Assembly (NCBI GenBank): GCA_964187785.1
Contig: OZ076412.1
Coordinates: 53,258,001-53,322,000, forward strand
From: Amphiscolops sp. MND2022
Lineage: Eukaryota
Direction of reading: 5' to 3'
Length of the DNA: 64,000 nt
Below the pieces are notes generated by a model, which had not been told where the DNA came from, ran no database searches, and saw only the letters and a list, made by a program, of their open reading frames with translations. Below, one piece after another: positions 5,721 through 29,094 of this stretch. Each line of letters begins with the position of its first letter. Positions within the stretch are counted from its first letter, which is position 1. The translations under genes and the position numbers were made by a program.

Positions 5721-7716
5721 ATAGAAAGAAATGAAGAAAAAGGTATTTATTGTGAATGTATATCGCTATTGAAAAGTTTAATTTTTCTTCGAAAAATTTT
5801 TAAAGCTACACTCTTTGAAAAAGTTTATAGTTGGATGCCAGCCAGCTTTCGGGAATGGAATATAAACGTTTCATGCCATTCAAACGTTTCATTGGTCCAA
5901 AAAACCCATTTCGTTCAAACAAGACTTCAATTGGATATCGTTCCAAGCTGTTCTAGGAAATTCTAGTTAACAATGCATTTTTACATTCCGAGACTTTGGA
6001 AAATGTTTGTTGCTCATATCGGGACCTATTTTCAATTCACATCAACTGAACATCATAATCCAGCAACAAACAGAGGCGTATCGCTTTTTCCAAATTCTTT
6101 ATTAGCACGAGGGGTAAGAAAAAGGTCATTATTGACAAAGATGTTGGTGTTTTTGAAACTCCTTTTGTTTTCAACAGTTGATGTTCAATGTCACGTCGGG
6201 AAAACCCGGCATTACGTGGTTTAGGACCAGTGGCACCAAGTTGTTTAACCTTAACAAGTTCTAGTGTCGTTTTTTCATTTTTTTACTTTTGCTTGTTCAG
6301 CTGCAAGAAAAACCTTTTAGAAGACGTCCTCTCCAGGTCTCTATTCCTCGCTCCACGATATGAGCGTGTGGCCTGCGCTCATTTTTGTTATGACAGAAGA
6401 CAAGTTCTGCAACAACTCGAAAATCACAATAAAAAACCGAAGAAAAATGTTTAGAAGTGAGCTTCGGTACCCAGGTAATGGTCCAGATGATGCAGCCACT
6501 CCCATCAACTCCTGGCCCTGTGTATTCGAGGTTATTATTGCTGTCTTCATTTTTCTCCCTCGAGTCCTGAATTGAGTGTTGAATTATTACTTGAATGGCT
6601 CATCTCAGTCGTTTTGGGTTTTCAACAATTGTTCTGTTTTTCAAGTTTTTCACAACAAACAATTAGTCCATATGATTTTCCCCACTCAGCCAACAAATAA
6701 GTTAATTGCTGCTGCGGACGCTCAAGAGGTTGGCGCTTCACTCTAGTGAACCTTTTTACTAGTAAAAAACGCTCCTGAGAAAATTTTCAAGGCCGTTAAA
6801 GACGCTATCCAACCTATGTGACTTAGCATTTAGGGATTTTTTGAGTACTCAGCAGAATCTGATGGCCCAAATAAGTAATCTTGGGCATGATTGAAGCAAG
6901 TCGCGCTTTTTCGGCTTTGTATTGATGTGTCAACAAACTCAATTGAAAACTTTTCATTGAAACGAGTCCCAAGCAGCACACAAAATAGTGTGTTGACATG
7001 GAGGGATCAAACCCTCCAACATATTGCACGCAAAGTAGTCGATCCGGGGTTCCAAAGGTGCTTCCATGAGCAAACTATCAAGTGAATTGCACGCAAGAAG
7101 TATGTCCAGCATAGGTTCAAACGTCTGAATCTCGTCTTGAAAGCATTTCATAACGACTGTCAGAGGTCTGTGTAGTTTAGAAACGTTCATCACATATCAT
7201 GAGAAATAAGGTGTACATCGTGAGTCGAAGCTCAAAAGTTTCATCAATTCCGATCAGAAACAAACAGGAAAGTACATTGAAAGAGCAGACTAATTCAAAA
7301 ATGTTCCTTTTTACAGTAACACCTCAAAACAATCATTCATTGAATGCGGTGTACATCGCGGTTCACATTTAGGCCAACTAATTTTTCTTATATTAGTGAA
7401 CGACTTTCTGAACTTCAGAAAGATAATTTCCGTATGTTTTGCTGCCTAGACCAGGTGTTCTGAACATATTCCACCACAGGTGACTGGGTAAGAATGAGTT
7501 AAGTTTCGCATTGATGAAACGCAGGAAGGAACTTTGCTAAATTGCGAGGACAACAGATTGTGTGACGTAGTTTTTGGCTGATGCTTCTGGATTTTAGGGC
7601 CATCCCACGTATTTGCATTTCAATTGCAGAGTGCACTTCGATGTTCTGTTTATGTTCATTTTGAATACTTTAGCTGGTATCGTTTACCCATAGCAGCTGA
7701 GGAAATCAATTCATCT

Positions 7717-9582
7717 TGTCGCAGGCTGCCGCCTGTGACGGTACGACAGTGACTACGTCGGCGAACGGACAAGAGTTTGTACCCGGAACACTACCCATCT
7801 ATTGATCGGGCTAAACTTTAAACTTAGGACTTTTACGTCATTTTGTTATACAATACATATTATGTTTGTTGATGTTGCTAGCTTTAATATATATACTTGC
7901 ACATGTAAAATTAATCTGTTAAAAGTTACATTTGAAGATCCAAATAATATAGTTGTGGTTTCAAAGATTGAAAGGCGCTTTGCAATTGTAAACGCAATAC
8001 GTGACAATGTAGCTGTATAGCGTAAAGGAAACGAGTTCAAATGGACGAAACTCTTATTCCGGAGACGTCACTTGAGCTCAGCATTTTAGCCAATCACATC
8101 GCTTCTCTTTGCTATATTAGTACTGCTTTGATTGTGTAGTGGCCGAGTACGGCCAATTGACTCAATATATATACTTCACTACACGCTTCAGTCAAATGGC
8201 CAATTCCGGCCACCTAGATGAAGTGAATTGTATACTCGTGTAATTAACCATATTAATCGGAAATTGCTATAAACGTATCCCTAATGATGAATGAAAGCCT
8301 CCACCCCGATCAATGAACCTAGTAGACCTAGTGCTAATTTAAAGGCCGAATAAAGCCTTTGCCCTCCCTTATTACGATGCTAGATTAATAAACCGGATTT
8401 GTCCATTTTCGGCCTTGTTAAAAGATGTGTTACTTTGATGGTGTAGTACTATTTTAAACAAGCTGATCATGTAATGTTTGATTTTGTTTCAACCTGTGTT
8501 AAATAATAAACACGTGGCAACGCGTGTCGTAATGACATTCCAAAAGGGATGCCTCTTACATTCCTTCAGTGAGTATTGGTATTTGTTGACCAGATAATGG
8601 TGATGATGTTTTCATAAAACAATGATTAGTGGTGCGGTTTGTGTACCTACCGAAGTGCTATTTATTTGATGTTGGATTCTCAGAAATTACCTGAATGTCG
8701 GGAATTTACCCGATTGGGGTTTCACTCAAATATGTGCTTTGAAGTGTTGATTACTTCACTAGTAATAATGATGATGTTTATCCCGTGACCTGTTAAGGCC
8801 GCGATCATGTAATATTCTCCTAATCAAAGAATCCGTGGAATGTGGCTGTCACCTTTTGAGAGTATATATACCCATGTTTCGAGAGGAGAAGTCATATTTT
8901 CCACATCCCTGCTTTGATAAAGATTGAATTGATATAACGATTCTCAACTAGTTTTCCGGTTTAAATAATTGAACTATTTGACCCGGTTCTGTCTTGATGC
9001 CTGTGACTAGGAAACAAAAGAAAGCGAGGAAATCGAGAGGGATAGAGATGCTCTCGGATATACAAAACTTAGACATCATGCTTGGTGAAAACCATTATAG
9101 CAGGAATGAGAGAGATGAGAGCTTTAATAGTAATCAGGCTAGGGGACCAAGAAGCGTCCCAAGAGATGAATTTGAAAACAATGGTGATTATAATTGCCTG
9201 GAAACAGGTAGTTTCGACCCCGGTACTAGTGCCAATCATGGCCAAAATTCAACAGGAGACAATTCAAGTGCCGAGATCAACAGGTTGTCAAGCGAGTTGA
9301 ATTCGAGATTGTCTAGGGAACTTGATGATATGATGAGTAGTGTTAATACCCAGATCCAGAGGGCAATCAATGATGCGATCAGTGGTCAAATTTTACCGCA
9401 AATCCAATCTGTCCTAAATGCCGGATCGGGACAATCGACACTAAATAAATGGAACGTTTCATCCGTGAGACCGGAAGTGAACTCCGAAGAAACCTATGGT
9501 GAGAAAGCCAAAAAAGGCAATAGAAGTGAGCAGCGCTTTGATTACCAAAATGGTAGCCAGCCTAACTTACGTGCCTACGACA
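7717..9582 (+). repeat. 5' LTR (1866 bp)
   Basis: Direct repeat of 22045-23911 with about 55 differences by hand count (~97%); begins TGTCGC and ends CGACA. Confidence 0.95.
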
Positions 9583-10715
9583 TGGTGACAGGAGACAACG
9601 AATCTCCTATCGAAGCTCCTGAGTTTCTCACGGGTCGAATGCCACCCAGAAACCATCTTCACAGTTCCCATGACAACTTCGACCCACTACTAGACACGAC
9701 GATCCCAGCACCCGAAAAGAATGCTCAGGCCCCTGAACTAGATCTCATCAACCAACTGGCTGATGCCCTGACAAGCATGCAGAATCGTCCTTCAGCCCAA
9801 CAGCTCACTATCCGCCCAGTCAACTCAAACACAATGACTTTCGATGGCAAAAGTGAGAAATTCGAACTGTTTGAGGATCTGTTCCACACGATGATCAAAA
9901 TCCAGCCTGAAATGTTTGAACAAATGAAAATTAATCATTTCCATTCGCTGTTAAAGAAAAACGCCTTACAAACATTCCGAAACATTAGCACAGCTAATAG
10001 ACAGACCCTTGAAGACGTATTAGTCATATTCCGACGAAAATACGTCAAACCTGAATCTCAAGCAACTGCCAAACACAGATGGCACCGTCTGGTGTTTGAT
10101 CCAAACACAACAAAACTACCAGATTTCGTTGAAGAATTGAATCAAGGTGCAGAAAAAGCGTTTAGAGACAACCCCCAAAAGATGATTGACAGCCTCCTAT
10201 ACGCAAAACTGCCACCGAAACTAAAAAGATCAGTTAATATGGCTAGATTAGAAAACAGCTCCTATGATGAAATCGTCGCTCACCTCGAGAGAGAGTTGGA
10301 GTTAAATGCTCTTGAAGAGTCCGACGACCTTCCAATGGCACCAATGACATCTTCAACCCCGAAAACCAAAACTGTTCCGTCCAAGGCACAGATGAGCGTC
10401 ATCACATGCAACTACTGCAAGAAAAAGGGCCATATGGTCAAGGATTGCGAAAAACTCAAAAAGAAAAAGGAGAAAGAAGCCCAACAAGGCAAACCGACCC
10501 AGAAAAAGACCTACCCCAAACGCAGTACTTGTGGCAAAACCAACCATCCTGAAGAGAGATGTTGGCAGGGAGCAGGTGCGCACCTTAAACCCAAACGCAC
10601 CAGACCAGAGGACGCGTCAGACAATGATCCTGACTCTAAGGTCTCCAAACCCCACTACAAGCCAACATCATCCAGTTCTCAAACTTCATCCAGCAAAGAT
10701 GACCAAAAAAACTAG
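8997..10715 (+). CDS. gag: Gag polyprotein (572 aa) beginning inside the LTR
   Basis: Intact ORF; capsid-like region (TFDGKSEKFELFEDLF...), zinc knuckle CNYCKKKGHMVKDC and a degenerate second knuckle STCGKTNHPEERC. Confidence 0.9.
   Translation: MPVTRKQKKARKSRGIEMLSDIQNLDIMLGENHYSRNERDESFNSNQARGPRSVPRDEFENNGDYNCLETGSFDPGTSANHGQNSTGDNSSAEINRLSSELNSRLSRELDDMMSSVNTQIQRAINDAISGQILPQIQSVLNAGSGQSTLNKWNVSSVRPEVNSEETYGEKAKKGNRSEQRFDYQNGSQPNLRAYDMVTGDNESPIEAPEFLTGRMPPRNHLHSSHDNFDPLLDTTIPAPEKNAQAPELDLINQLADALTSMQNRPSAQQLTIRPVNSNTMTFDGKSEKFELFEDLFHTMIKIQPEMFEQMKINHFHSLLKKNALQTFRNISTANRQTLEDVLVIFRRKYVKPESQATAKHRWHRLVFDPNTTKLPDFVEELNQGAEKAFRDNPQKMIDSLLYAKLPPKLKRSVNMARLENSSYDEIVAHLERELELNALEESDDLPMAPMTSSTPKTKTVPSKAQMSVITCNYCKKKGHMVKDCEKLKKKKEKEAQQGKPTQKKTYPKRSTCGKTNHPEERCWQGAGAHLKPKRTRPEDASDNDPDSKVSKPHYKPTSSSSQTSSSKDDQKN
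9583..9594 (+). promoter_or_regulatory. Primer-binding site TGGTGACAGGAG
   Basis: TGG immediately after the LTR-terminal CA; resembles the complement of a tRNA-Leu 3' end (TGGTGTCAGGAG, 11/12). tRNA identity is uncertain. Confidence 0.75.
10706..10712 (+). promoter_or_regulatory. Putative -1 ribosomal frameshift heptamer A AAA AAC
   Basis: In X XXY YYZ register directly before the gag TAG; the -1 frame is the frame of ORF 11048-11251 leading toward protease. Confidence 0.7.
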
Positions 10716-13700
10716 CTTCGCCACGACTCCAATATAACCAACTCGTCTCCGTCCGACAATACATCAAATCGGACCCTCCAACTAAAAACTTCCACAATTA
10801 CAAACAACAATTGATGGGCTACCCCTCTGTTGTCTGGCAGCAGCAGATGGATAAAGCTATAATCATTACTTACAACAACACCCATTTATTCCAAAAACCA
10901 ATTCCTGTCTAGGACCCGGACTATACAACTACCTTCCCTACCCGGTTCAGGCCCATTCCCCTGATCGATGATTACAATCCAATATACATCGACCCAGACT
11001 ATGGCAGAGATCCTTATTGGGACACTGAGATTTATAACCAGGACCTCTTGCAATTCCAGTATGTCCTAGATGACATTGAACACTACAACATAACAGTCCA
11101 CGAGAACCCTCTAATTACCCATAACAAGAAAACACGGGCACTAATTGAAAATTGGCAAATGAGCGATGGTACAATCCACCCAGTCTTCCCAAACCCGCTG
11201 GGAACCGAAAATCCTGAAAATATTGCCGAATCCATACAAAATTACTATTAGACGAGAAACAATCCAGAATGTACTCATAACCAAAGATGGTGAACCAGAC
11301 TGTATACCCCTGTCAACCAACATTATTCTCAAATGCAAGAAACGCATGCTTTATTTCCCAATGGACTTTGGGGAAGTGACCATTGATGGACTCATCGACA
11401 CTGGGGCACTGTCCAGTGCAATTCCTGAAATGGACCTCCGGAAAATCCGCCTTTCATTTCCACAATTTGTCATCCGGGAAGGTCCCCCTCCAAACTTCCA
11501 AATCATGGTCGCTAATGGGCAATTGGAAACTCCTAAGAGCACCATAGAGCTCAAATTCGAAGTTGGTGACATTGAGTTCCATCAAATCTTCATAGTAATG
11601 GAACATTTGACAGGACCAATCATTGGACTAATGTTCCTTCAGAGAAATCATACAGTCTTGGACATGAGACAAGGAATCCTGAATTTCCCGTTCTTTTCAA
11701 TGCAGCTTAAAACAGCTGACCACAAATATTCCAACGTACTAGAACCAATTCTCAACCCCACTAAGATAACAACTCCGCCAAATGATAGAGTCCAATATAG
11801 GACCAATTCCTTACTGTATCCTGAGAATGCGGTTACTGGGATTTTGCAACCGAGCGACCTCCTACATGAAGAAAGCGACATCACATTTTGCCCAGCCTTG
11901 GTCACTCTAAATGATGGCAGTATATCGATACCTGTGAATAATTTCACAGACCACCCTTATAAACTTAAAAAGGGACTTCATATTGCCAATTTCTTAGTCA
12001 TGACGCCAGAACAGATGAAATATGTCAAACCGGTAGACCCAGCTTCAACCTGGCACCTCTTGCAAAATGACCAAGAGCAGGCAGCCCATTATGTCAGCAG
12101 CCTCATCAAGACGAACAAAAATCCTCAGAATTCCAAAAATGACTGGTTCCCAACCCCAGAAAACCCTGGAAACCCCGAGGAACACACACCCATCCAGAAA
12201 AAAATCCTTCGAGAACTACAGGCCTTACAGGACCTGGAAACACTCGACCCCACCAAAGATGAAGAATCTCGTGCAAAATTCCTAGAAAACTTTGATTGGA
12301 AAGATTCCACCCTTACTCCTGAAGAAAAGGAGAAAATTGAGGAATTACTAGTAGAATTCCATGACATATTTGCACGACACAGATTTGACATAGGCATGAA
12401 CGAGGACTTCAAGGTGAAACTGACGCCTAAGGACGATTCCCCGGCCTATAGTCAAAGCCTTCCAGCACCTATCAATCTGAAGGAGGACATCCTAGTTGAA
12501 TTAGCCATGTTACACAAATATGGCATAATAACTACACTGCCATTTTCGAAATATGCAAGTCCAATATTCGCACAAAAGAAACCGAACGGAAAACTCAGAC
12601 TCTTGGTCGACTTGAGAAAAATCAACAACCTCATATCCGATGATTACATAAACAATAATCACCCCGTCAGTACTTAAGTCGACGCCGCCCAACACTTAGC
12701 GGGCAAAAAACTGTTCTGTAAACTAGACTGCTCACAGGCATACCACTGCTTGCCGATGGCTGACCAACAATCGATTGAAATGTTGGCCTTTAACTTCGCC
12801 AGTCGCACATTTGCATACAGACGTTTGGCACAAGGCCTTAGCCGGGCTCTGTCCACATTTTCGAGCTTTATGAGGGAATACCTTGACAAAGTCATCAAAG
12901 CGGACCAATGTGCCTAGTATGTGGACGATATCGGCATCGCAGCCAAGGATGCTGACCACCTCATAGCTAACCTGAGAGCAACATTCAAATGCATTCAGGA
13001 AGCAGGCCTTAAGTTGACAATGCACAAATGTCACTTTGGTGCAAAAGAATTTGATTTTCTCGGACGAACTATTACTCCACAAGGCGTCAAACCCCAGAAA
13101 CAGAATGTACAGAACTTTCCGGAAAAGACCAATTTCCCGAAGTCGAAAAAGGCTTTACAACGCTATTTGGGCTTCCTGAACTATAACAGGAATTATGTCC
13201 CAAGACTTTCAGAACACCTTGCTCCATTCTATAAGATGCTGAAAAGTGACGAGAAGGTCCCAGTATTGAAGGAATTAGTCCAGCAATTTGAAGAAATCAA
13301 TAAAGCACTAGACAAACGCTGCGATTTAGCCCTACAACAACCTATACCGAACAAGCAAATTGCACTAATGACTGATGCAAGTTTTGGTGCAGCCGGGAAC
13401 GCGGTCCTAATTGAAGACGACCCAAGCCAGAAATTGACGTCACTCAGAAAGTCCTATGCCACTGTAGCATATGGATCAAAAATCTTCACCCCGGCACAGA
13501 TCAAAATGTCAATTTATGCCAAAGAATTCCTTGCAATTTCTTTTGCATTCAAAGAATTTGGACACATCTTCTGGGGTGCGCCGAAACCGGTCATTATCCT
13601 TACAGATAACAAAGCTGTCACGCAATTTTTTCAAACGAAAATAATACCTCCAGCCCTGTGGAACGCGTGCGATTATGTGATTCAGTTCAATTTTGTCACA

Positions 13701-15901
13701 GCGCACATCCCAGGAGCACAAAATACAGCTGCCGACTATTTGTCCCGCCTGGAAGCGGACTCGAAGGACAAATTAGTCATCAACATCCGCGAAGATGTAC
13801 AAACGGTACCAATCGAAATAAATGTCCAATCAGAAGGGGTGTCACAGGAAGAACAAATCTTCTACACGAATGACGACGTTGAGACAGAGGAACAATACTG
13901 GGCAAGGAAAGAAGCAATCAGGAAAAATCCAGCTATTGAAGAGCCAACGGTTACAATACAAACTCTGTCAACAAATCTGGTCAAGCAACACCCTGATATA
14001 CAAGTCCGATTGAGGAAGGCGATTCAGATCATTATCGAGCAATCCAAAGATCCGGTACTACAACAATTGAAAGCAAAACTGCTTCATGAAGAGTATTCAG
14101 AAAATCTACTGCAACAGGAAGCTCGATACAGGCATTATGAAAACAATCTGGAACGAATTGTATTAAAGGACGAAATCCTGACAAGGCAATACTTTGATGA
14201 AACAGGGAACGTGGAATACCATCAAATTCTGCTCCCGCAACACTTACTCCAGGAATTGCTTCAGTCTCTTCATGGGACAGCGCACAAACACTCTGGTTTC
14301 TCAAAACTTTTGCAGGAAATTCGACAGAGGTATTACTACCCTAGCATGGCTAAACACGTCAAGAAATGGGTAGAAGGGTGTGAAGAAAGTGCAAGGGACA
14401 AACGAGTCCCCAACGCAACAATTACGCCTGAACTACTCAACTTGCCCGAATGGGACCTTGGACCTGAGGACGCCATGCAGATTGACCTATTGCCGAATCT
14501 TCCCCCAATTGGAGGATTTAAAAATGTCCTAACAGCAATTGACGTATTCTCTAGATATTTGTTCGCCTATCCTCTTACGGACGCATCGGCGATCAACGTA
14601 GCAAAAGCCCTCATTGACATTATGACTAAGCACGCATATTTACCGACAACACTTATTACTGACAAGGGTACTGCATTCACTTCCACGATCATTGCGGAAA
14701 TTACGCAAATTTCGGGGATAACACTCAAATGTGCAACAACAAAACACCCACAAACAATTGGGAATTTGCAGCGGACCCATGCCTCACTGAAAACAAATCT
14801 CAAAATGGCATGTGGAGAATACCGCCGACAATGGCACAAATACTTGCCACTAGCAGTACTAAATCACAACACTAGTTACCATACCAGCATCGGTTGTGAG
14901 CTGACGAGAGTATTTCATGGAAGAATTCCATATAATATCTTGGATCACAAGCTTGGAAACAATCCAAACGAGCAAGTCAACCCAACAACCGAATTTGCGG
15001 AAGATTTACAAAACCGGACAAAAATCCTGATTGACAAAACAAAGCATAACATTATGCAGTCATATATCAAGTACAAAGAGTATTAGGACCGCAAGGCAAA
15101 AGCCGCTCCATTAAGGGAGAATGATTACTGCTTTGTATTACAGCCGAAAGCGGATCATCAAGGATCAAAAATCCCATTCCGTGATTATAGGTGGGTCGGA
15201 CCATTTATAGTCCAAAAAGTTTTACCTAATGAAAAATATATTGTACGACGAATCAATACAAACAAGACTCAAATATTGCATCGAATTCGCCTTAAAAAGT
15301 TTGTCCCCAATCAAGCGCTTGAGGATAATTTCCGAGAACAGCGGTTACAGCCTGATGAAGAGATCGTCATTCCGCAAGACGACTTATATACCATAACGTG
15401 GGAAACAGATTTTGGCGAGCAGCTCATAACACGAGGACACGATCCTATTCCGTCTAGCTTGCCGAGTGCGGCAGAAGCGAATTCAAGTGACGCAAACGAG
15501 AATCAAGTGGATTACATAATCACGAGAGACGAATCAAATCACGCTGACTGTACGGCGCACAGCCGGAATGAACAATTAACAGATGACGTTACCAAAAGAA
15601 ATGAAGCTGATGAAGAGACTAGAAATGAAGAATCTGATTGGCCGAATCCGGCCGTTTCCCCAAAAAGTCAAGAAAAAGCTTTGCCGAAATCGGATGATGG
15701 ACTAAAAAACGATGAAAATTTTTCACAAAGAAATCCGATGAATGAAAATGATGTACAAAATTCTCCAAAAAGGGGAATGATATTATCGTGACCGAAATAT
15801 CGGAAAATGATACCAGAAAGGAAAGCCTGAGCCCTAGAGGAGGGAAGTATAATCTCAGGCCTAACCCTAACCCAAACTACTCAGAAGACTTTAGATACTA
15901 G
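10713..15901 (+). pseudogene. pol: Pol (aspartic protease, RT, RNase H, integrase), disrupted by stops and frameshifts
   Basis: LIDTGALSS (PR); YASPIFAQKKPNGKLRLLVDLRKIN and YVDD at ~12918 (RT); LMTDASFG, ILTDNK (RH); HGTAHKHSG, QIDLL, TDKGTAF (IN); WVGPFIVQKV C-terminal module; ends NPNPNYSEDFRY*. Confidence 0.95.
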
Positions 15902-17289
15902 AAAAGGCTAAATTCAGCTCACAAATGAGCCTGGAATTCTTTTTTCTTTTATCTTTTTCTCTTTACCAGTCCCAGGAAAGTATTTTTGAACAAATAATGG
16001 GACCTCAAAGGATCCCTTCCAGAAGAGAATAAATACGGGATCAAGAAACCAAAGAAACAAAATGACAAATACAACAGAAAAAAACAAAGTTTACAGTCTA
16101 GGTGTACATATATACATATGCACAATTAGTCTTTAGAGCTGCTAGTCGTAGCCTTCATCACTACGGAGGATGACCTGGACCGGGACTGGCTCCTTTCCAT
16201 ACGTCTCCGCTTGGTGTCGCTGGGCAGCCTAATAGCGGGAGCATCTCTCACGGAGGGAACGTCAGCTGCAGTAACATCCTTACAACTCGTTCCTGCCCCA
16301 GAAAGAACATAGCGATGGGAAGACTTGAAGGACTTGTAAATGGACGAACGCCCGGAGTTATCCACATATGTCCAGGGATAATATTCGGAACAGAGTCCAG
16401 ATTGCCCGAATGAAGGAGGAGAGCAGGGAGAATTTTTCAAGGCTGACATCAGTACAACAGAGAGCTAGGGAGTCAGAAACCTCAGATAGGTAACTTTGGC
16501 AAGGCAAAACTACATCCGATATTCGTGACTGAAGGCCTTGAGTGTCTACCTTCCCCATCGCCACAGCTGGATATCGGGAACTAGCAGAGGTTAAACACAG
16601 ACAGCTCAACTTGAAAAGGTAATAGAGGTGCTCATGCGTTTGCAGGAAATCAAGCCCCATAAGGAACTCTATGAGGTCACATGAGTCATCAGTAAGGCTC
16701 GGGTTGGAAGAATGGTAAGTTCGGAGATAATCCAGCAATGCCAGATACTCGTCCCTGCACGCAGCCTCGTTTGGCCCAGTGACCCAGGATCGCAACTGGA
16801 AAGTTGAATATAGGATGCCAAAGTGGCGGAGAGCCACCTCAGTAGGCCGTTTCATCATGATGTAAGGGTCAAAAGCTGCCAACCCCTTGACAATACCAGA
16901 GCTAAGACCAGTATGCTGGAGGACACCTCTGAGTAGGTGCTCGATGTACCTCTTGGCACTGGTTTTGAAGTCGGACTTGGCTGAGTCGGCTGTCTTATCA
17001 ATGACAGCCTTACTTGACTTCTTGTTGAAAAGTAATTCTGCAGCCTTCAGATTACTAGCAGCAGCCACCTTGTTGGTCATCTTGAGTCTGACTAGGAATT
17101 CGTCACCTTTCATGAATTTCCCGTCGCTAGTCCGAAAATCCAGCAAGAGAAACCAGGCACTCTCGAGAGGGACAGTGTCGTGCTCATACACCCGAAAGCA
17201 AAGCCGGCTGATGAACCTGCAAACCTCCCCGCAGAGGTAGAAGGTAGCGTCCCGTCTATGAGAAAGATTGACGGTAAAACTTGAGACGT

Positions 17290-17360
17290 CTGAAACACAA
17301 AACCAAAAGAGTCCATATCAGGACATGTGACCAATGCATACCGAAGCATAGCTTACTCAC
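17290..17360 (-). other. Intron 3 of the antisense gene (71 bp, phase 1)
   Basis: GACT|GTGAGT ... TTTTGTGTTTCAG|AC; joins ...QRLIND to YVSSFT, in frame with ORF 16358-17191. Confidence 0.8.
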
Positions 17361-17577
17361 AGTCGTTGATGAGACGCTGAAAGAATTCCAGTCTGACGGA
17401 GAAGAACTCATCGGATATCAAGGACCACTCAAAGCTCTGGACCTTGTTGTGCACACCCTGGTTCTCCTGTCGGCGGGAATGGACAGTCAGATATCGGAGG
17501 ACTGACTTCCATCGCTTGAGTATATCCCGACATAAATCCGGGAGTTTGTCTACTTCCAATTTGCTGGTAGTTATAGC

Positions 17578-17644
17578 CTAAATACAATGAGGTTATGAAA
17601 CTTGTCATACAATTGCATGTCCCTATCACTTCGTCCTACGTTAC
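17578..17644 (-). other. Intron 2 of the antisense gene (67 bp, phase 0)
   Basis: ATG|GTAACG ... TCATTGTATTTAG|GCT; joins ...AFCFTQM to AITTSKLEV in frame. Confidence 0.7.
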
Positions 17645-18157
17645 CATTTGAGTAAAGCAAAATGCACTAACTCGAGTGAGCTCAGATGATTCCAGGACCC
17701 AATCTTCAGTGACAGACCCGCCTAGGGAAACGAGGAGGCATTGTAGGACGGAGAACATGTCAATATGGCCAAACACACTGTAAGTGAACTTGTGCATCAG
17801 AAGTTGTAAATCAAGCTATTCAAATCGGAAGCAGCTCTGGATGCCTCGTGAGTAGAAATGATGCTGGTCAATTGTACGAATATAGTCCACAGAGCAGGCC
17901 GAGCAAGCAACAATGTCGGGATCGGTTGACACTACTGATATCAAACGTGACAGAGACCCCAGTTCACCGGTGAGGTCAGCAGCAGGAAGCGCACTACGAC
18001 AGATGAAAACCCTACAGAGTTTGGTCTCCCTCCAATAGCGCAGAAACATCAGACGACCTGTCCCACTGTCCTCAAGTTCGATGGAAAAATGCTGTGCTAA
18101 AGTCACTTGTTCAGCAATGTCCTCCATGACTCAGTTGAAAAAATGTTGGAATATAGC

Positions 18158-18310
18158 CTGAAATGCAGAATGGAGTCACTCACAAGATAATGCAATTTCA
18201 CCTATGTCAGCTCCCATACATTTATTTACGTGCATATATGCAATATTATACAAGTTCGTATGTTAAAGTGTAAGTAGGAATCGGAAACAGGACATTCGAA
18301 TTATACTTAC
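18158..18310 (-). other. Intron 1 of the antisense gene (153 bp, phase 0)
   Basis: ACA|GTAAGT ... TTCTGCATTTCAG|GCT; joins ...DWSEERIT to AIFQHFF. Confidence 0.75.
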
Positions 18311-21169
18311 TGTGATTCTCTCCTCACTCCAATCGAAATCGTGGAAGACTGTCTGGTAGTCAGTGAAGGACCCGACTCGTGACCATAAATTCCGGAGGAC
18401 GGTTAATTCCCCCTGCCTTTGGATGAAGTCCCCGATGAGGCAAATCTGAGTTTCAGCACGTGACTTGGGAGTTACTAAGGCTGTGGTGCTTCCTTGAGAT
18501 AGTCCCCATAGAAGGGGAACCTTTCTCCTACATCAACAAGTTCGGTGTGAATGAACTTTGGAAGTTCCAGCGCCAATTCAACTTTACTGAGGATCTTCCC
18601 GTTCTTCCCTCTAACCCTATGTTGGATTTTTCCTGTGACGGGGTCAATGCTCCTGAGATGCTCGTAGCGCCAACGCTGGTCCCTTCGGAGGTGTTTTTCG
18701 GTTCGATGGTGCCTAAGAACTTCGACCACCCCTTTCGTCTTCACAGAAAAGTTCTTTTTACACATGTGGCACCAGACCATGTGCGGATTATGAAGGGGAT
18801 CTGCGGGGCCAGATATGAAGGACCGAGTCCATCCGATCTTGGAGAAGAACTCTTCTCGCATGGGTACTCCTCGTCTCGGAGTGGTTTTGGGCTTGCGGGT
18901 CTTCTTGCCTGACTTTTTCCTTTGAAGTTTTTGCGTCGAAGGTTGCTCTCGTAGTTCTGACAATGTCGCATCAAGACTGCTTTGTCCTGTGGATTCTTCT
19001 CCTCTTCCAACTGATTCAAGGACTGTTGATGATTGCTGTGCAGGCCTGGTGTCCTCGATCGACGATCTTTTGAAACTGTTGGCTATCAGAGCCATTTCCC
19101 TTGAACTATCGCTATCCTCCGGCATTGATACACCCACGACTTCAAGCAATGCACTAAAGTCCCCACTCGCCTCTGAATCCTGTCCGGGATCGATGAGGAA
19201 TCCTTCGCAACTAGAGCTTCCTGCTTGTTGTGGTCTAGGTGTCTGGGCTCGGCTCTTGAATTGCCCAGTTGTCGAAGGGGCCGTGGCTAGCTTTCCTTTC
19301 ACTGCACCTATGACCATTTGCTCCATGGTTGTACAGGTCATGCTGATGGCCTCATCGGTCAGGACTCGTAACAAGTGGTAGATCTGAGGCTCAGTAAAAG
19401 CTACAGTTCTGTGGCCCACTGGGAAAGTGTAAGGGTCTTCGGCCTCGAAATACTGTTTTAAAATAGCCCTGCTGCGACCAGACAACTCTCTTAGTGGTTC
19501 CTCCTGTTGTCGGGCACCCATCGTTGACGTCCCAAGTGGGTCGTTAATGTAATTCTCAAGCTCAGTATCGGTGTCTTTTCCGGACTCAAGCTCTGAACAA
19601 ACTGGAATCGTTCCGTACAGTGGAGAAAGTCATCAAGTCCAGAAGCCGCTTCCGTGGTATCGATGTCGCTAGTCTCCTCGGTTACTCGAGCTTTCCCTTT
19701 GGGTAACGGGGGAGGACCACTGGTTGTTGATGAGGAGTCTTCCTCAATTTGCAAGAAAGAGGAATCTGGGACCACTCTTGATGTTAAAGCAGTGACTTGC
19801 GGCTCAGGGAACTCAGTGGAGGTGGTTACAGCGATTTGTAAGAGTGACTCAAGCTGGGATAAACTCGGCGACTCACCTAGATTCCGACCAGCCTGCGTTG
19901 GGGTGCTGGTTTTCCTAGGATCTAAGAGAGGGGGGGTGGACAAACCCCCCGTGCAAGAAGAAGCTACGGGTCTGCTTTCGTCAGTTTCCTCTGCCGGTGG
20001 CGATGCAGCAACTTGGCTTGCCTCCACTCGCTGTACCATCTACGTCGCGTAAGCAGTAACATCCACATTACTGTCAGTGCTGAGAGGGGATTCAGTAGTG
20101 TTCTGATCCTGGAATGTCACAAACCTGACGTGAGGAAGAAGAGTCGGGATCGGATCCTGAGCAAGATTGGCAGTGAGGACAGAAGACGGGTCAAATGTTT
20201 GTTCGGACTGTGCGTGGATGTTCACCGTGGTGTTGGTTGGAGTTTGATTTTCGTCTACATTCTGATTCTCTAAACAGAAAGAGATGAAATTTGGCGGTGA
20301 GCTTCCTTGAAAGAAATCCATTTTGCCGCATTAGAAAACTTCCGGAAGCGTCTTGAAAACTTGAATGAAGTGTGTTTGCACGCGTTCATTGACGGAAATA
20401 GGAAGCGTTTTATGAACAAATTTACCCCTGATCAAGTTAAATTAAGTTCAAATCAGAAACAAACCAACCTTCAGCGGATGACATTCTATGACGAGTCAAC
20501 TGTTGGGAACAAATCCTTGACTGGTTGCTGATAATTGGGAAGTCGGCTGGATCCGGCAGGAAGAGAGAGGAACCCTCCGACAGAGAGAGGTCTGCAGCTG
20601 AGTCAAAGGCGAGGAAAGACAGGTATTAACAAAGCAAATCCAAGTAAAAGATACAATTGGAATATAAATGGAATTAAGTTGGAACTGAGACTGGGTGAAA
20701 GAAATTAAAAGATTGGAGTTCGTGGCTGAAGAACATTACCAGACTAATATTATATGATTATCTACATATTTAAAATGTACATGGAGTCTGCCAGTGAAAT
20801 GTACAGAAAGTTTTCATTATTCACAGTTTGATTAGTTAGAGGCCGATTATGGCCGTTTGCCTTATTTTGTTTTACCGTTTTGTTCCGTTGTCCCAGTTCT
20901 TCTTAGTTAGAATTTTCGCCATTTTGAATTATTTTAGGTATTATTTTCGCCATTTTAATTATTCATTTTTCATTGTATCAATGAGTAACTCTGATTGGCT
21001 GAAGCCATTTTGGGTAGATTCAGTAACGCAAGCCGTTAATCACCAGCAAACAACCTGTTAATTACCCACTTGAAGTGAAGTTATTTGTTGATAACAACTT
21101 GAAGATGCTTCTCTCACCCACTTGAGAAATGATATTAGGGGGTCTTACCAACTACAATTCAAAGAAGCG

Positions 21170-22133
21170 ATGCCGCTAAAAATTCCATTCAGGAAAGTTT
21201 ACGACGACTCGGGACGAGAGGATCTACTGCCGAGTAGAAAACCCGGAAAAAAGTCCCAACTCGGCATACGACGGAATTTCAGTAGATTCATTCTGCCTCA
21301 AATTATTCAGCAATCAGTCGTCTTACCAGCTTCGAAAATCGCTAAAAAACTCATAATGAGCAAGTTTAACCTCTCAGGAAAATTGTTTGACTTTGAAGAA
21401 AATGATTTTGATAACTCCGATAAATCAGTAATCTACATATCCAGTAGTGAAGATGAGTCCTCAGACTGGGAAACCGATTGTTCGACGGACACCGAGCAAC
21501 TGATAGCCCGGATTGAAAGAGAAGTTACTTCCAGCCCAATGCTATTCGGGGGCAGGATAATGACCATGGATGAACCCGAAGAGGCGAAAGCAGAGCCAAG
21601 TACGTCTCAAGTGGAAGAAGGAGTGACACCGAAACTAGGCCTTAAATACTTCGATAAAGAAATGTGCTATGCCCCACCAAGGAAATTTGAAAAGAAGCGC
21701 ATAGAGCTCTGTAACACAATAATGCCCGTCCTATAATCGCCAATGTCTCCCCCGGAGCACGAGAGGGGTCCAAGTGTGGACACCCCCTTCTCCAGCCGAC
21801 CTCGAGTAACTTTCATGCGTCCTACCACGGCAAAATACAGTACCCTATCAAAATGTCAGTGAGGTACGTTATACAGGATGCATGGTTTGCGGCCGTTCAG
21901 TGGACTCAATCAAGGACGAAAAGCTGAAATGGTATATGCAACGATCTACACCAAGAGATGAGCCTGAATACATCACGAGACTCAGAAAGGAGGCATATGA
22001 AAATGGACTTAATGCTGGCTGTTTTCTTTTCATCACACCCGCAGTGTCGCAGGCTGCCGCCTGTGACGGTACGACAGTGACTACGTCGGCGAACGGACAA
22101 GAGTTTGTACCCGGAACACTACCCATCTATTGA
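21170..22133 (+). pseudogene. Sense accessory ORF (ORF3), one nonsense codon plus one frameshift, extending 89 nt into the 3' LTR
   Basis: ORFs 21122-21736 and 21882-22133 link through MSKFNLSGKLFDFEEND...VIYISSSEDESSD...YTGCMVCGRSVDSIKDEKLKWY...TPAVSQAAACDGTT...TLPIY*. Confidence 0.6.
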
Positions 22134-23911
22134 TCGGGCTAAACTTTAAACTTAGGACTTCTACGTCATTTTGTTATACAATACATACTATGTTTGTTGA
22201 TGTTGCTAGCTTCAATATATATACTTGCACATGTAAAATTAGTCTGTTAAAAGTTACATTTGAAGGTCCAAATAATATAGTTGTTGTTTCAAAGATTGAA
22301 AGGCGCTTTGCAATTGTAAACGTAATACGTGACAATGTAGCTGTATAGCGTAAAGGAAACGAGTTCAAGTGGACGAAACTCTTATTCCGGAGACGTCACT
22401 TGAGCTCAGCATTTTAGCCAATCACATCGCTTCTCTTTGCTATTTTAGTACTGCTTTGATTGTGTAGTGGCCGAGTACGGCCAGTTGACTCAATATATAT
22501 ACTTCACTACACGCTTCAGTCAAATGGCCAATTGCGGCCACCTAGATGAAGTGAATTGTATGCTAGTGTAATTAACCATATTAATCGGAAATTGCTATAA
22601 ATGTATCCCCAATGATGAATGAAAGCCTCCACCCCGATCAATGAACCTAGTAGACCTACTACTAATTTAAAGGCCGAATAAGGCCTTTGCCCTCCCTTAT
22701 TACGATGCTAGATTAATAAACCGGATTTGTCTATTTTCGGCTTTGACAAAAAGGTGTGTTACTTTGATGGTGTAGTACTATTTTAAACAAGCTGATCATG
22801 TAATATTTGATTTTGTTTCAACCTGTGTTAAATAATAAACACGTGGCAACGCGTGTCGTAATGACATTTCAAAAGGGATGCCTCTTACATTCCTTCAGTG
22901 AGTATTGGTATTTGTTGACCAGATAATGGTGATGATGTTTTCATAAAACAATGCTTAGTGGTGCGGTTTGTGTACCTACCGAAGTGCTATTTATTTGATG
23001 TTGGATTCTCAGAAATTACCTGAATGTCGGGATTTTACCCGATTGGGAATTCACTCAAATATGTGCTTTGAAGTGTTAATTACTTCACTAGTAATGATGA
23101 TGATGTTTATCCCGTGACCTGTTAAGGCCGTGATCATGTAATATTCTCTTAATCAAAGAATCCGTGGAATGTGGCTGTCACCTTTTGAGAGTATATATAC
23201 CCATGTTTCGAGAGGAGAAGTCATGTTTTCCACATCCCTGCTTTGATAAAGATTGAATTGATATAACGATTCTCAACTAGTTTTCCGGTTTAAATAATTG
23301 AACTATTTGACCCGGTTCTGTCTTGATGCCTGTGACTAGGAAACAAAAGAAAGCGAGGAAATCGAGAGGGGTAGAGATGCTCTCGGATATAGAAAACTTA
23401 GACATCATGCTTGGTGAAAACCATTATAGCAGGAAGGAGAGAGATGAGAGCGTTAATAGTTATCAGGCTAGGGGACCAAGAAGAGTCCCAAAATATGAAT
23501 TTGAAAACAATGGTGAATATAATTGCCTGGAAACAGGTAGTTTCGACCCCGGTACTAGTGCCAATCATGACCAAAATTCAACAGGAGACAATTCAAGTGC
23601 CGAGATCAACCGGTTGTCAAGTGAGTTGAATTCGAGATTGTCTAGGGAACTTGATGATATGATAAGTAGTGTTAATACCCAGATCCAGAGGGCAATCAAT
23701 GATGCGATCAGTGGTCATATTTTACCGCAAATCCAATCTGTCCTAAATGCCGGATCGGGACAATCGACACTAAATAAATGGAACGTTTCGTCCGAGAGAC
23801 CGGAAGTGAACTCCGAAGAAACCTATGGTGAGAAAGCCAAAAAAAGCAATAGAAGTGAGCAGCGCTTTGATTACGAAAATGATAGCCGGCCTAACTTACG
23901 TGCTTACGACA
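22045..23911 (+). repeat. 3' LTR (1867 bp)
   Basis: Copy of 7717-9582, followed by the TSD CATCT. Confidence 0.95.
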
Positions 23912-24061
23912 CATCTACATCTTCTTTTTTCCTGGTTGCCGGTAAGGATTATGTTTTGCTCAAGCGACCTTATTTTTGTTGATTTGATACTGGTGGAGAA
24001 GTGCATAAATCACTAGAGGCTCCAATCACTGACGTGATTCATTAGACAGGTGTACAAGGTA

Positions 24062-24785
24062 TGTACCGTCCAGCAAAAGACGTCACAAAAATTCGATGAA
24101 ATGTGCGATAGCAAAATTTCTAAATCAAGATGGCCGACCTGACAGGTACTGGAAATTGAAAAGGATGATGAAAAATAATGCAAAGACACCCCCTCCAGCC
24201 CGAGAGAGAACACACCGCCACAGAAGTATCCCCGATATCGCTGTGTTGTGCCATCTCCCTCGGAAGACGTCCCAGCTGCCAGCAGAGCCCGAAGAATGGC
24301 CCAAGAGATGAAGAAACTCAGAAGTTTGCATATTTTGCATGTGCCACCTAGTAGGTCCAAGACCAAGGCTCTCTGACATTGACGCCTGATGTTTCTTTAG
24401 CCTGTTGTACCATATTTGTGGTTTTTGTAGAAGTTTGGTGATGTTATAGCCCTTATTTCAGCCAGTTTAGACGTTATTCACTAATTAAATGTACTTTGGC
24501 TAAACCCCTGTTTTTGGACCTCGGAGGTATTTAGGAACACGCAGGAGCCTTAGGAATTGTTTTTACAGGCTTGTGGGACGTGTCCGGACTTTGAGAGCGC
24601 CGGCACGTCGCCTCGGAGCTCTAATAGAGGAGACTCCTTAGACAATTGGAAAAGTCCCTTTTAGGAGACCAATTTGGGAATAAAAACAAATGCCTAGGGC
24701 TGTAGTAACACAACCGTCTCCTGTCTAAGCACCCTAGGCATTGTCCCACTTCTATGATGTACTCTGCTAGGTGGCTGACGTTACA
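24062..24785 (+). repeat. 5' LTR of element 2 (724 bp)
   Basis: Direct repeat of 28370-29094. Confidence 0.9.
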
Positions 24786-24801
24786 TCTAGAATAGTTTTT
24801 T

Positions 24802-24819
24802 TGGCGCCCCACAAGGGAC
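24802..24819 (+). promoter_or_regulatory. PBS TGGCGCCCCACAAGGGAC (tRNA-Lys-like)
   Basis: 15/18 match to the classical Lys(UUU) PBS TGGCGCCCGAACAGGGAC; 16 nt downstream of the LTR. Confidence 0.7.
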
Positions 24820-27335
24820 CTTTTTCTTTTCGTCATAATAGGAGTTTTTCCTGCTTTCCGGCCCTGTTAGGTCCGGATCTAGGAAAATTTGTTGGAGAGT
24901 CTTAAATTGTTTTTATTGCCTTAGTCAAGCCTGGTAGGCTTTCTACTAACTGAATTCCTGCGTTTCCTGTGTATTCTCGGGGTCTGAAAGGTAAAATACC
25001 CGATTTTGGACAAAGTACCGTTTCAACACCGTTTCTGCTTACCGAGATTGAACATCCGGCTCAACCGGATAGTGTTTTAAAGGGTTTTGTAGCCTCATTT
25101 CAGCTTGGTAGTAATGTATGGGAACTGCAGGGACGTGGTGTGAGCGCCTCCACTAGCTGTAACGACGGAGTGACGTATTTCACGGCAACACCCTCTTGAC
25201 CCACTGGTGGACAACTAAGAATTGGATGCGTTACAATCTCCTCTTTTCTTTTCGTGGCTTTAAAAGCCTATTCCCAGGCGTACCCTCATTAGTAAGAACT
25301 GAGAAAAATACCCACTGGGTATTCCCATGGTTTTTTAAAAAAATATAGCGAGCTAGCTATAACACCTGATATAGCTCAGTTTTCAACTTGGTTACTTTCA
25401 AAAGCCAAAATTTTTCAGAAGAGGGTACGGCCAGTGGGAATACAATAACAACGTTCCATCAGACCTGCTAGGTCAGGAACAGAAAATTTTGTTTGTCTAA
25501 AATACTGAAACATCAAAAAATTTAGCGATCTTTGTTGAAAAAACATCAATTTTGGCATAAAAGACCAAAATTGGTGAGGGCGAAGCCTTGGACGTTTGTT
25601 CCCAAGCTTTCAGATTTCCCAAAAACGTAGTTCCCGAGCTTGGTGGTACAGAACATTACTGTCAAGACAATTTTTAACATCCCCCAATAAAATTGAAACT
25701 TTAACCCCTGGTTTTCTTTGATATACATTGACCTGAGTAGAGGACCCCATAGACCTGAGAGTTATAACATCAAAATTAATAATTGAAATGACCCCAGTCC
25801 CCTAAACATAGGCATTACACCTTGACACATTACTGTTAGAACTATCCCGAACATCTGGGAACCGAGAAATAGAAAGTTCTTAGGGAAAATACGTGTTTTT
25901 CATAAGTGTTCCCAGAGTGTAAAAGGTGTAACTTGAAAATATTTTGAGGGACTTTATTTGGAACCTGCCAGGTTTCGCTTGCCTATTTTCTGTTAGTACA
26001 AAGTATAACGTTGCAATCGCAGAAAACTGCGAGTAATTTCAACCAGTGGTTGCCGAGAAATAGCCAAAAACGTGTTACTTCAGTGACAATATCGGTACAC
26101 TGGAGTAGTGTTCCTGAGACAGGTCGGAATCTCTCCTGGTAGAAGCAGCCAAAAACACATTGCACCATCGTGTAAACCGCAAAAAGTTACGTTAGTAGTG
26201 TAAGTTTTGTAGCGCTACCAATACTAGTGATTGAGAAATCTTAGCCGAAGTTTTGCTCAAAAATTGTACGAAATTGTCAAAAAAAATCGAGTTTTAGTTG
26301 AGCATAGTACTACACCTTCGGAGTACCCAGCACTAAAATTCTTGCATTTTTGTACATATGGCACTAGATCCCGACAATTTGTGCATTTTGAGCAGCTTGG
26401 TACAGTCCAACTTGGAGAAATGGACAATTTTGTGAATTTTGACCCCAAAAAGTGACACATAGGGTACATCATAGTTTTGTCAACTCGGATAGCAGAATAT
26501 TGACTTGGGCACCCCACTAAATTGTTTTTCTGTTACGTGGGCAAATTTCACGCTCGCATACATTATTTCAGGTAGCTAGGACGCCTAGAACGCGAGTTTG
26601 ACCAATTTTTGTGAATTTCACGACATATTTTCTGTGAACATTGTTAAGTGACCGTAACACCCACAGAGTCAATTTCTACGCAAACGGCAGTAAGTTTCCC
26701 ACAATTTGGTCACACTAGTATACTTTGTTACATTTTCAGGTCCCTACCAGCTCTAGAAGTGAATTTCACCCTTCCCAGGCGTGCGTATCAGCGAAAACTG
26801 CCGATTTTGTGAATTTTTGCGAAAAATCACAATTTTCGGGGCTGTAGTTGTAAGTGAGTGCTCCAACGACCCTAGTCCTACACCAGGCATCCATAGCACG
26901 TACTGTTGAAGCACTTTGAATAGAGCTAGGCCAACCCTGAGATCTCGGTTTGTCGAAAAACTGTCTACAAGACGAAGAAGCGAAAAACACAAAAACCTTG
27001 TTTTTTCTCTCAACAGCTATCAAAGTCACTTGAGTGCAATCAATTCATTGAGATTACGCATACTCAGTGCCCTACGGGCCCTACGGGTGCTGGAGCGCGC
27101 GCTTATAGGCATTTTTGGAGGTTTAGATTTTGTACGCAGTGCGTCTCAAAACAAAACAACAAAGGCTATAGTGACTACCTTAGTTGAAACAGAACGCCTT
27201 TTCTGATCGTGCTACGATCGTAAAGCAAGAAAGCACTTCAAACTCAGTGTCCCTCTTTCTACTCACCGCCAAAGTCTCTCCCTTGTCCCTAATCACATTT
27301 TTGTTTTTACTTGTGCTCTCCAGAAACAGGGCAGC

Positions 27336-28685: not shown

Positions 28686-29094
28686 CACTGACGCCTGATG
28701 TTTCTTTAGCCTGTTGTACCATATTTGTGGTTTTTCTAGATGTTTGGTGATGTTATAGCCCTTATTTCAGCCAGTTTAGATGTTATTCACTAATTAAATG
28801 TACTTTGGCTAAACCCCTGTTTTTGGACCTCGGAGGTATGTAGGAACACGCAGGAGCATTAGGAATTGTTTTTACAGGCTTGTGGGACGTGTCCGGACTT
28901 TGAGAGCGCCGGCACGTCGCCTCGGAGCTCTAATAGAGGAGACTCCTTAGACAATTGGAAAAGTCCCTTTTAGGAGACCATTTTGGGAATAAAAACTAAT
29001 GCCTAGGGCTGTAGTAACAAAACGGTCTCCTGTCTACGCACCCTAGGCATTGTCCCACTTCTATGATGTACTCTGCTAGGTGGCTGACGTTACA
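28370..29094 (+). repeat. 3' LTR of element 2 (725 bp)
   Basis: Direct repeat of 24062-24785. Confidence 0.9.

Follow-up and report, generated by a model that had tools for sequence, protein, structure and literature searches.

Architecture of the element

The 64,000-nucleotide (nt) stretch of Amphiscolops sp. MND2022 analysed here (GenBank assembly GCA_964187785.1, contig OZ076412.1, positions 53,258,001–53,322,000 of the forward strand; hereafter the window) contains a Ty3/Gypsy-type retrotransposon of 16,195 nt (~16.2 kb), bounded by two long terminal repeats (LTRs) of ~1.87 kb and a five-base target-site duplication (Table 1). The LTRs are 97.0% identical across 1867 columns in a self-BLAST of the window, and no further copies or solo LTRs of the element were found within the 64 kb. 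An open reading frame (ORF) for Gag starts 586 nt inside the 5′ LTR and crosses the LTR end and the primer binding site (PBS) in frame. A first-pass annotation of this DNA had placed the ATG at 8997, the LTR end at 9582 and the PBS in frame behind it, and self-BLAST and the ORF listing reproduce all of these positions. Based on the evidence presented below, we consider it highly probable that a Gag gene starting inside the LTR is a family trait of this Ty3/Gypsy-type element.

When the PBS is compared with the complement of the 3′ end of an insect (not host) tRNA-Leu, taken from supplement 1 of PMC13524379, 9 contiguous bases and 10 of 12 overall match, and tRNA-Leu is our best lead for the primer. 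No tRNA genes were found in the window, and no Rfam match was obtained over positions 7000–25000.

Table 1. Features of the element, with positions numbered from the first base of the window
Feature	Coordinates	Strand	Remarks
Target-site duplication, left copy (CATCT)	7712–7716		Identical 5 bases at right end
5′ LTR	7717–9582	+	1866 nt, TGT...ACA, imperfect terminal inverted repeat; self-BLAST
Final 29 codons of the 3′ ORF with their stop, as a passenger copy at U3 start	7717–7805	+	Identical peptide in both LTRs
TATA-like box and initiator-like motif	8863–8898	+	Box 8863–8870, initiator 8892–8898, A at 8894; 31-nt spacing
Gag ORF	8997–10715	+	572 residues, intact in this copy; ATG at 8997; capsid fold
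LTR-coded Gag head	8997–9582	+	195 codons and one base, without a stop codon; a basic tip is followed by an acidic linker, a long helix and another linker
Basic N-terminal tip, residues 1–15	8997–9041	+	7 Lys/Arg, no Asp/Glu; 4–8 Lys/Arg in the first 15 residues of 8 relatives
Conserved amphipathic helix, residues 87–142	9255–9422	+	Predicted local distance difference test (pLDDT) 73–88 over residues 91–140 (AlphaFold)
AATAAA inside Gag codons 150–151	9444–9449	+	Probably chance; unchanged in 3′ LTR
Met196, alternative start	9582–9584	+	ATG made of last LTR A and PBS TG; strong initiation context
PBS, translated in frame	9583–9594	+	TGG at 9583; best lead tRNA-Leu
Two-lobed capsid domain, residues 267–450	9795–10346	+	Helical model, mean pLDDT 80, 59-sequence alignment
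CCHC zinc knuckle, residues 470–484	10404–10448	+	E 0.008, short of the Pfam cut-off, which relative P0298 exceeds
A-AAA-AAC heptamer	10706–10712	+	Just ahead of Gag stop; −1 frame open 10703 to 10909
pol (protease, reverse transcriptase, RNase H, integrase)	10703–15791	+	Broken in this copy
Antisense ORF, 319 residues	16358–17317	−	No Pfam match above cut-off
Antisense ORF, 384 residues	18475–19629	−	By eye, a zinc-finger pattern of C2H2/BED-like type; no Pfam match above cut-off
Antisense ORF, 182 residues	19491–20039	−	No Pfam match above cut-off
3′ sense ORF, ~340 codons	21095–22133	+	In pieces here; ends 89 nt (29 codons) inside 3′ LTR
Expected polypurine tract site	22015–22044	+	Coding instead; 9 of 30 purines, 5 of 10 in the last ten
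3′ LTR	22045–23911	+	1867 nt; self-BLAST
3′ LTR copy of the Gag head, 218 residues	23326–23982	+	195 codons open, then 23 codons of flanking DNA
Target-site duplication, right copy (CATCT)	23912–23916		Matches 7712–7716

The Gag frame inside the LTR

The junction peptide reads LRAYD/MVTGDNES, with the slash at the LTR end. As the head lacks a stop codon, it would be sensible only as part of Gag. When the 585 nt were shuffled, the frame was open in 0 of 5000 trials, and 1 of 5000 shuffled LTRs had an open stretch of 195 codons in any of the forward frames. A codon model based on the gag core and pol of the element itself gives −0.05 bits per codon for the frame of the head; the other forward frames score −0.41 and −0.88, and shuffles −0.51 ± 0.11. 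The AT skew of the LTR flips at ~8920 from negative to Gag-like positive.

Conservation of the head in relatives

The relatives considered here are predicted proteins, and for the distant ones the position of the LTR end is deduced from the junction motif alone. A search scored on the head (residues 1–200) found 234 proteins. Among the best 120 of these, with identities of 53–90%, the junction is preceded by exactly 195 residues in 85 and by 197 in 19, and the same eight opening residues are found in 95. Because such a search favours proteins that carry a head, a second one was scored on the capsid core alone (residues 262–445), and is blind to the head. It yielded 3134 proteins, and among the best 120, at least 170 in-frame residues precede the junction in 104 and 69–167 residues in 13, while 3 start at the junction Met; some in-frame LTR residues are present in 117 of the 120. 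The sequence D-M-V-T-G occupies the junction in 157 of 170 relatives, and Met196 is nearly invariant.

The head is not uniformly conserved. Pairwise identity among 16 head representatives amounts to 75% in residues 1–40, 37% in 41–80, 71% in 81–140 and 41% in 141–193; at the junction it is 82%, and in the capsid 88%. Differences in the two conserved blocks are conservative, with mean BLOSUM62 scores of +0.05 and +0.23, and in a simulation of neutral drift to 53% identity, 8 of 2000 frames remained open.

A profile search among representatives clustered at 50% identity gave 2369 proteins, of which the best 150 were examined. In 15 of these, the match to the head is lost near the junction; 12 turn to unrelated sequence directly past it, and the remaining 3 end earlier or later. 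The first residue beyond the junction in all 12 is Ile, Asn, Thr, Arg or Ser, the codons of which may begin with A (background 44%). These junction-ending matches appear to come from 3′ or solo LTRs in which the frame continues into the flanking DNA, and as such they show a head without a stop codon. A capsid core is present in 67 of the 150 representatives, and in 22 of the 67 an (M/V/I)VT(G/E) motif stands before the core; upstream of the motif there are at least 40 residues in 14 of the 22, at least 100 in 9, and 7 residues in 1. Internal MVT(G/E) motifs are preceded by Asp, His, Asn or Tyr in 24 of 24 cases (background 17%; the sequences are related and not independent), the residues of the N-A-C codons required by an LTR ending in ...ACA. 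Six relatives with a core identity of 45–68% (P0281, P0286, P0298, P0317, P0326 and P0367) have 114–194 residues before the motif; all have the basic tip, and in most the head shows little or no alignable similarity to the one described here. As judged from these proteins, a Gag start inside the LTR is a family trait, with the LTR end at the same codon in the relatives. Gag had been proposed from the DNA alone to begin ~195 codons inside the LTR and to read through the PBS, and the conservation of the upstream frame in close as well as distant relatives supports this as the most likely arrangement and extends it to the family; an upstream frame that varies among copies, which had been named as grounds for refutation, was not observed.

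In four distant Gags (P0281, P0292, P0310 and P0408), the junction motif is repeated in tandem as two to four degenerate copies. This suggests that the LTR end and the PBS were duplicated in frame.

Structure of the head and the capsid

Between the basic tip and the helix, residues 16–85 of the head are acidic and unstructured, and residues 144–195 form a linker. The full-length Gag fold, predicted from an alignment of close relatives, has a mean pLDDT of 39 and is confident only in helix 87–142, where hydrophobic residues recur every 3–4 positions. Three copies of residues 80–148 are modelled as a parallel bundle with a score of 0.75, compared with 0.01 for the best of three controls; the contacts agree to at least 83%, and pLDDT is at least 81. 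In a calibration with two copies, 21 of 30 microbial and 17 of 29 eukaryotic solved self-pairs (7 of 16 among animals) attained the mark used for complex models, as did 0 of 23 and 0 of 30 proteins solved as single chains. The models support self-association of helix 87–142 as a coiled coil.

As for the capsid, the top Foldseek matches of the model are the PNMA2, dArc1 and Copia capsids, with a best E value of 6e-4, and ranks 1–35 in VIA-align are all retroviral and retrotransposon capsids. Superposition with dArc1 aligns 156 residues (Z 10.9, root-mean-square deviation 9.9), and with the C-lobe of PEG10, 85 residues (Z 9.6, deviation 2.6). On this modelled fold, the product of the 572-residue ORF is Gag. 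With regard to Belpaoviridae (BEL/Pao), the BEL-associated domain DUF1759 matches the capsid below the cut-off here and above it in three relatives; the domains and the best solved relative of pol are given below.

Promoter, poly(A) signal and alternative starts

A TATA-like element had been noted at ~8862, and is located as TATATATA at 8863–8870. The pair formed by this box and the initiator-like motif is unique by a strict pattern in 7717–8996, and a looser pattern adds a pair at 8168/8202. Such a pair occurs anywhere in 6.7% of shuffles and in the last 200 nt in 0.9%; the copy in the 3′ LTR differs at one initiator base. Transcription is predicted to start near 8894. There is no ATG in 8894–8996, and 17 are found from 8997 to Met196. 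With a start at 8894, U3 would be ~1180 nt and R-U5 ~690 nt long, and to this extent the long coding R-U5 that had been suggested would hold. The same suggestion included a need for poly(A) suppression at the 5′ LTR, an argument that is not supported. Most LTR elements have to ignore the poly(A) site of their 5′ LTR, and this is no special consequence of the present layout.

The first-pass annotation in full would have a long, mostly coding R that ends after the AATAAA at 9444, with dedicated suppression in the 5′ LTR. The hexamer is indeed present in both LTRs, and there is no other exact AATAAA past the predicted start. It occurs at chance level, however, in 48% of codon-order shuffles, and 8 of 170 relatives retain its Asn-Lys codons (the most frequent pairs are Arg-Gly in 63, Lys-Gly in 34, Asn-Arg in 32 and Glu-Arg in 22). 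The bases 25–60 nt downstream contain 14% T, while weaker variant hexamers at 8916 and 8963 lie in a T-richer context, and three exact AATAAA are found in U3. The hexamer at 9444 was rejected as a conserved poly(A) signal on these grounds, and the long R appears unlikely to us. A short R near the cap is at least as likely as an R that ends near 9465, and if R is short, the entire head would lie in U5.

Several points weigh against a Gag start inside the LTR. The transcription start, the poly(A) site and translation of the frame are predictions from the DNA, and because the relatives are predicted proteins, broken or out-of-frame heads are under-counted. The initiation context of Met1 is weak and that of Met196 strong. 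Among the 22 representatives with a junction motif, 7 start at the motif itself, and 45 of the 67 core-bearing ones show no motif, many of them being short fragments. Linkers 41–85 and 144–193 change as if neutral, with mean BLOSUM62 scores of −0.53 and −0.74, compared with −0.61 in the neutral simulation; because of this contrast with the two conserved blocks, the blocks appear to be under protein-level constraint and the linkers to be just kept open. Between the two LTR copies of the head, 17 codon differences are non-synonymous and 4 synonymous, a neutral pattern; a difference of this kind is expected after insertion, carries no selection signal and is uninformative. The number of three copies in the bundle was our choice and lies outside the two-copy calibration, and the alignment was not used in the modelling. 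Finally, the head has no match in Pfam or the ESM Atlas, which implies neither novelty nor absence.

The strong context of Met196 can also be accommodated if both starts are used, such that a long Gag from Met1 or Met18 is made along with a short capsid-bearing Gag from Met196, and a short or head-only form acts as a regulator similar to Ty1 p22. The short form could arise by internal entry, from a shorter transcript or by splicing, and the arrangement is compatible with a Gag start inside the LTR. Ty1 provides a precedent, since it makes an internal transcript and p22/p18 (10.1101/176248), and the near invariance of Met196 fits as well. The conservation of Met-Val-Thr-Gly is, however, uninformative on initiation, because the integrase end and the PBS force these residues, and no internal promoter was found, though none was searched for. 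We regard the use of two starts as not very likely.

Considerably less probable is that Gag starts only at Met196, an ATG in strong context of the kind that arises at any CA/TGG junction. The frame before it would then be an independent accessory ORF of the U3 type, comparable to sag of mouse mammary tumour virus (MMTV) and nef of human immunodeficiency virus (HIV); the 3′ LTR would express it, and transcription would start late in the LTR. Apart from the initiation contexts, this would agree with the 3 of 120 core-scored matches and the 7 of 22 junction representatives that are annotated from this Met, and with the faster divergence of the LTR part compared with the capsid (37–75% vs 88%). 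Against this, the LTR ORF lacks a stop codon, and its terminal copies run into random flank. The frame is moreover held with the capsid at head lengths of 114, 125, 126, 188, 189, 194, 195 and 197 residues, and the sole strict TATA/initiator pair lies upstream of 8997, so that 17 ATGs would have to be passed before Met196.

That the long LTR is an artefact, i.e., a shorter true LTR stretched into gag by segmental duplication or gene conversion, has only the unusual layout in its favour and is refuted for practical purposes by the TGT...ACA ends with their terminal inverted repeat, the 5-bp target duplication, a PBS directly at 9583, and the recurrence of both boundaries, codon for codon, in relatives that are independent (12 of 15 for the right end, and 6 of 6 short matches for the left end, described below).

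A second frame enters the LTR at U3

The Gag end of the LTR had been recognized at first pass, but coding at the other LTR end and the absence of a polypurine tract had been missed. The 3′ sense ORF is broken in this copy by a stop at 21734 and by frame changes near 21745–21850; because longer relatives join the frame of 21095–21736 to that of 21810–22133, it is regarded as a single ORF of ~340 codons. The sense frame 21810–22133 has 104 relatives among 106 candidates, with 57–98% identity, and continues across the LTR boundary in 93 of the 97 that cover the part before the LTR. The six weakest matches (P0269–P0274) align only from the boundary, each after Leu, Val or Met, in keeping with the N-TG codon required at the LTR start. 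With regard to an env gene behind the integrase, as in errantiviruses, no Pfam or ESM Atlas match was obtained for this ORF, which again implies neither novelty nor absence. Together, 586 nt of Gag and 89 nt of the 3′ ORF make ~36% of the LTR coding.

In 90 of 90 aligned relatives that passed the coverage filter (of 104), the six codons before the LTR start force at least 9 pyrimidines in 18 nt, and the family is therefore without a canonical polypurine tract. As judged from these codons, the tract is absent in the family and a second conserved ORF spans its place, which is new in this analysis.

Two observations concern the same region. The 3′ ORF carries a CxxC motif and a hydrophobic stretch at the boundary. 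At 22020–22046 on the + strand, the DNA resembles a splice acceptor, with a pyrimidine run and a CAG directly before the TG of the LTR, and this may be a by-product of the codons.

Other parts of the element and the window

The heptamer ahead of the Gag stop is presumably of the −1 frameshift type, and likely serves as a frameshift site into pol. In pol, stops are found at 10910, 12675, 12915 and 15084, and the frame changes near 11160–11250. The best solved relative among PDB chains is Ty3 Gag-Pol (E 2e-27), and Pfam matches were obtained for RT_RNaseH, RT_RNaseH_2, Integrase_H2C2 and rve. The gap between protease and reverse transcriptase (11163–12677, + strand) is longer than usual, with ~250 residues that have no Pfam match. 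The three antisense ORFs are situated between pol and the 3′ sense ORF.

Outside the element, a second pair of direct repeats (24057–24785 and 28366–29094; 730 nt, 96% identical, 4.3 kb apart) begins 145 nt past the 3′ LTR, and is possibly a non-autonomous LTR element. On the − strand, 5 kb at 39000–44000 have reversed coding-like skews and include an ORF of 173 residues (42972–43493) without a Pfam match; no match to the proteins of the present element was found in this region, which is probably another decayed element. A tandem repeat with three to four copies of a ~184-nt unit occupies 47238–47906. An exon of 545 residues at 52327–53964 (− strand) encodes WSD and PHD domains and resembles a host chromatin gene of the BAZ/WSTF type.

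Comparison with known systems

The element shares with canonical Metaviridae the LTRs with TG...CA ends and target duplication, the PBS beside the 5′ LTR, a gag with capsid and zinc knuckle, and a pol with protease, reverse transcriptase, RNase H and integrase that is closest to Ty3. According to the ICTV profile of Metaviridae, the LTRs are non-coding, U5 comprises 75–250 nt, and about ten purines precede the 3′ LTR (PMC7879559). The present element deviates in that ~36% of the LTR is coding, R-U5 would be ~690 nt if the predicted start is right, and there is no tract. Because the canonical layout of the profile has non-coding LTRs and a U5 of that length, the element is filed as Ty3/Gypsy-type, non-canonical. 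Pseudoviridae (Ty1/Copia) were excluded, since the integrase follows reverse transcriptase and RNase H instead of preceding reverse transcriptase.

In Ty1, the Gag AUG is located in the last ~40 nt of the LTR. The PBS is inside the GAG ORF, at RNA nt 94–104 (PMC4974528), and transcription starts in the 5′ LTR at nt +238 (10.1101/176248). Because of this PBS position, at most ~31 codons precede the PBS. Ty1 is thus a small-scale precedent, with a PBS within the Gag ORF and a transcript start in the 5′ LTR. Here, in contrast, 195 codons precede the PBS, about six times the scale, and a folded domain is among them. Ty1 is also Copia-type, whereas this element has the order protease, reverse transcriptase, RNase H, integrase, a second ORF that enters U3, and no polypurine tract.

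HIV nef, MMTV sag and foamy virus bel are 3′ ORFs that extend through the region of plus-strand priming as far as U3, and the overlaps retain the purine tract. The 3′ ORF likewise enters U3 here, but its codons exclude a purine tract. We know of none among these viral systems that has Gag in the LTR.

Insect errantiviruses belong to a different clade and serve as a baseline only. They are Ty3/Gypsy-type and have a third ORF, and some use tRNA-Leu (PMC13524379). Among 89 rows from supplement 1 of that study, the upstream LTR reaches the Gag start in 0 of the 77 with LTR coordinates, and in those rows the LTR ends at least 400 nt before the Gag start. The plant elements Retand, Grande and RIRE2 are alike, by description, in a long region between pol and the 3′ LTR with antisense ORFs of unknown function, and no Gag inside the LTR is described for them in the passages considered of PMC7264820. 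Nor is a Gag-in-LTR layout described for Oikopleura Tor in those of PMC4402516, or in those of PMC5408684, PMC7175516, PMC3095310 and PMC9911081, the last of which describes acoel genomes as rich in LTR elements. In the literature at large, with partial coverage of subscription sources and repeat databases, no description was found of a long Gag head in an LTR or of this family, and an earlier description may exist.

A proposed doubly coding LTR

Based on the evidence for a Gag start inside the LTR, the following sequence of events can be envisaged. The genomic RNA would start near 8894 and carry a 103-nt leader without AUG, and ribosomes would start at 8997, with some leaking through to Met18 or Met28. 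Gag residues 1–199 would then be translated from what remains of R-U5, from the integrase end and from the PBS. The basic tip may serve in nucleic-acid or membrane binding, or in nuclear import, and the coiled coil may aid Gag oligomerization in place of a retroviral matrix domain. At the junction, the bases would do double duty, as the ...AC-A of the LTR and the TGG-TGA-CAG-G of the PBS are read as (D/H/N/Y)-M-V-T-G. We expect the tRNA primer to anneal only to RNA that is no longer being translated, a requirement shared with Ty1. With an R-U5 of ~690 nt, the minus-strand strong-stop DNA would also be ~690 nt, several times the usual length. Because each round copies the coding U5 into both LTRs, a passenger ORF without a stop would come to lie in the 3′ LTR.

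A more far-reaching interpretation, which we put forward as a doubtful proposition, is that of an animal Ty3/Gypsy-type lineage with a doubly coding LTR, where U5 holds the stop-less self-associating head and U3 the tail of an accessory gene, and where plus-strand priming relies on an undescribed mechanism instead of a polypurine tract. Every 3′ or solo LTR would then be a portable unit of promoter, AUG and oligomerization domain that fuses to whatever follows. If this is true, head-only Gag fragments could poison particle assembly and provide a built-in control of copy number, and the portable LTR cassette would seed chimeric host proteins genome-wide.

Replication signals and protein code share the same bases in this LTR, and an arrangement that comprises a few codons in Ty1 is extended to a folded domain. 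LTRs are defined as non-coding, and annotation pipelines seek gag past the PBS and a tract before the 3′ LTR; because both expectations are broken here, the lineage would be mis-annotated. The layout raises the questions of how a 690-nt strong-stop DNA is synthesized and transferred, how the PBS is handed over from translation to the tRNA primer, and how the plus strand is primed. Should the stop-less head be expressed from solo LTRs, these would readily supply dominant-negative Gag fragments and give rise to new chimeric genes.

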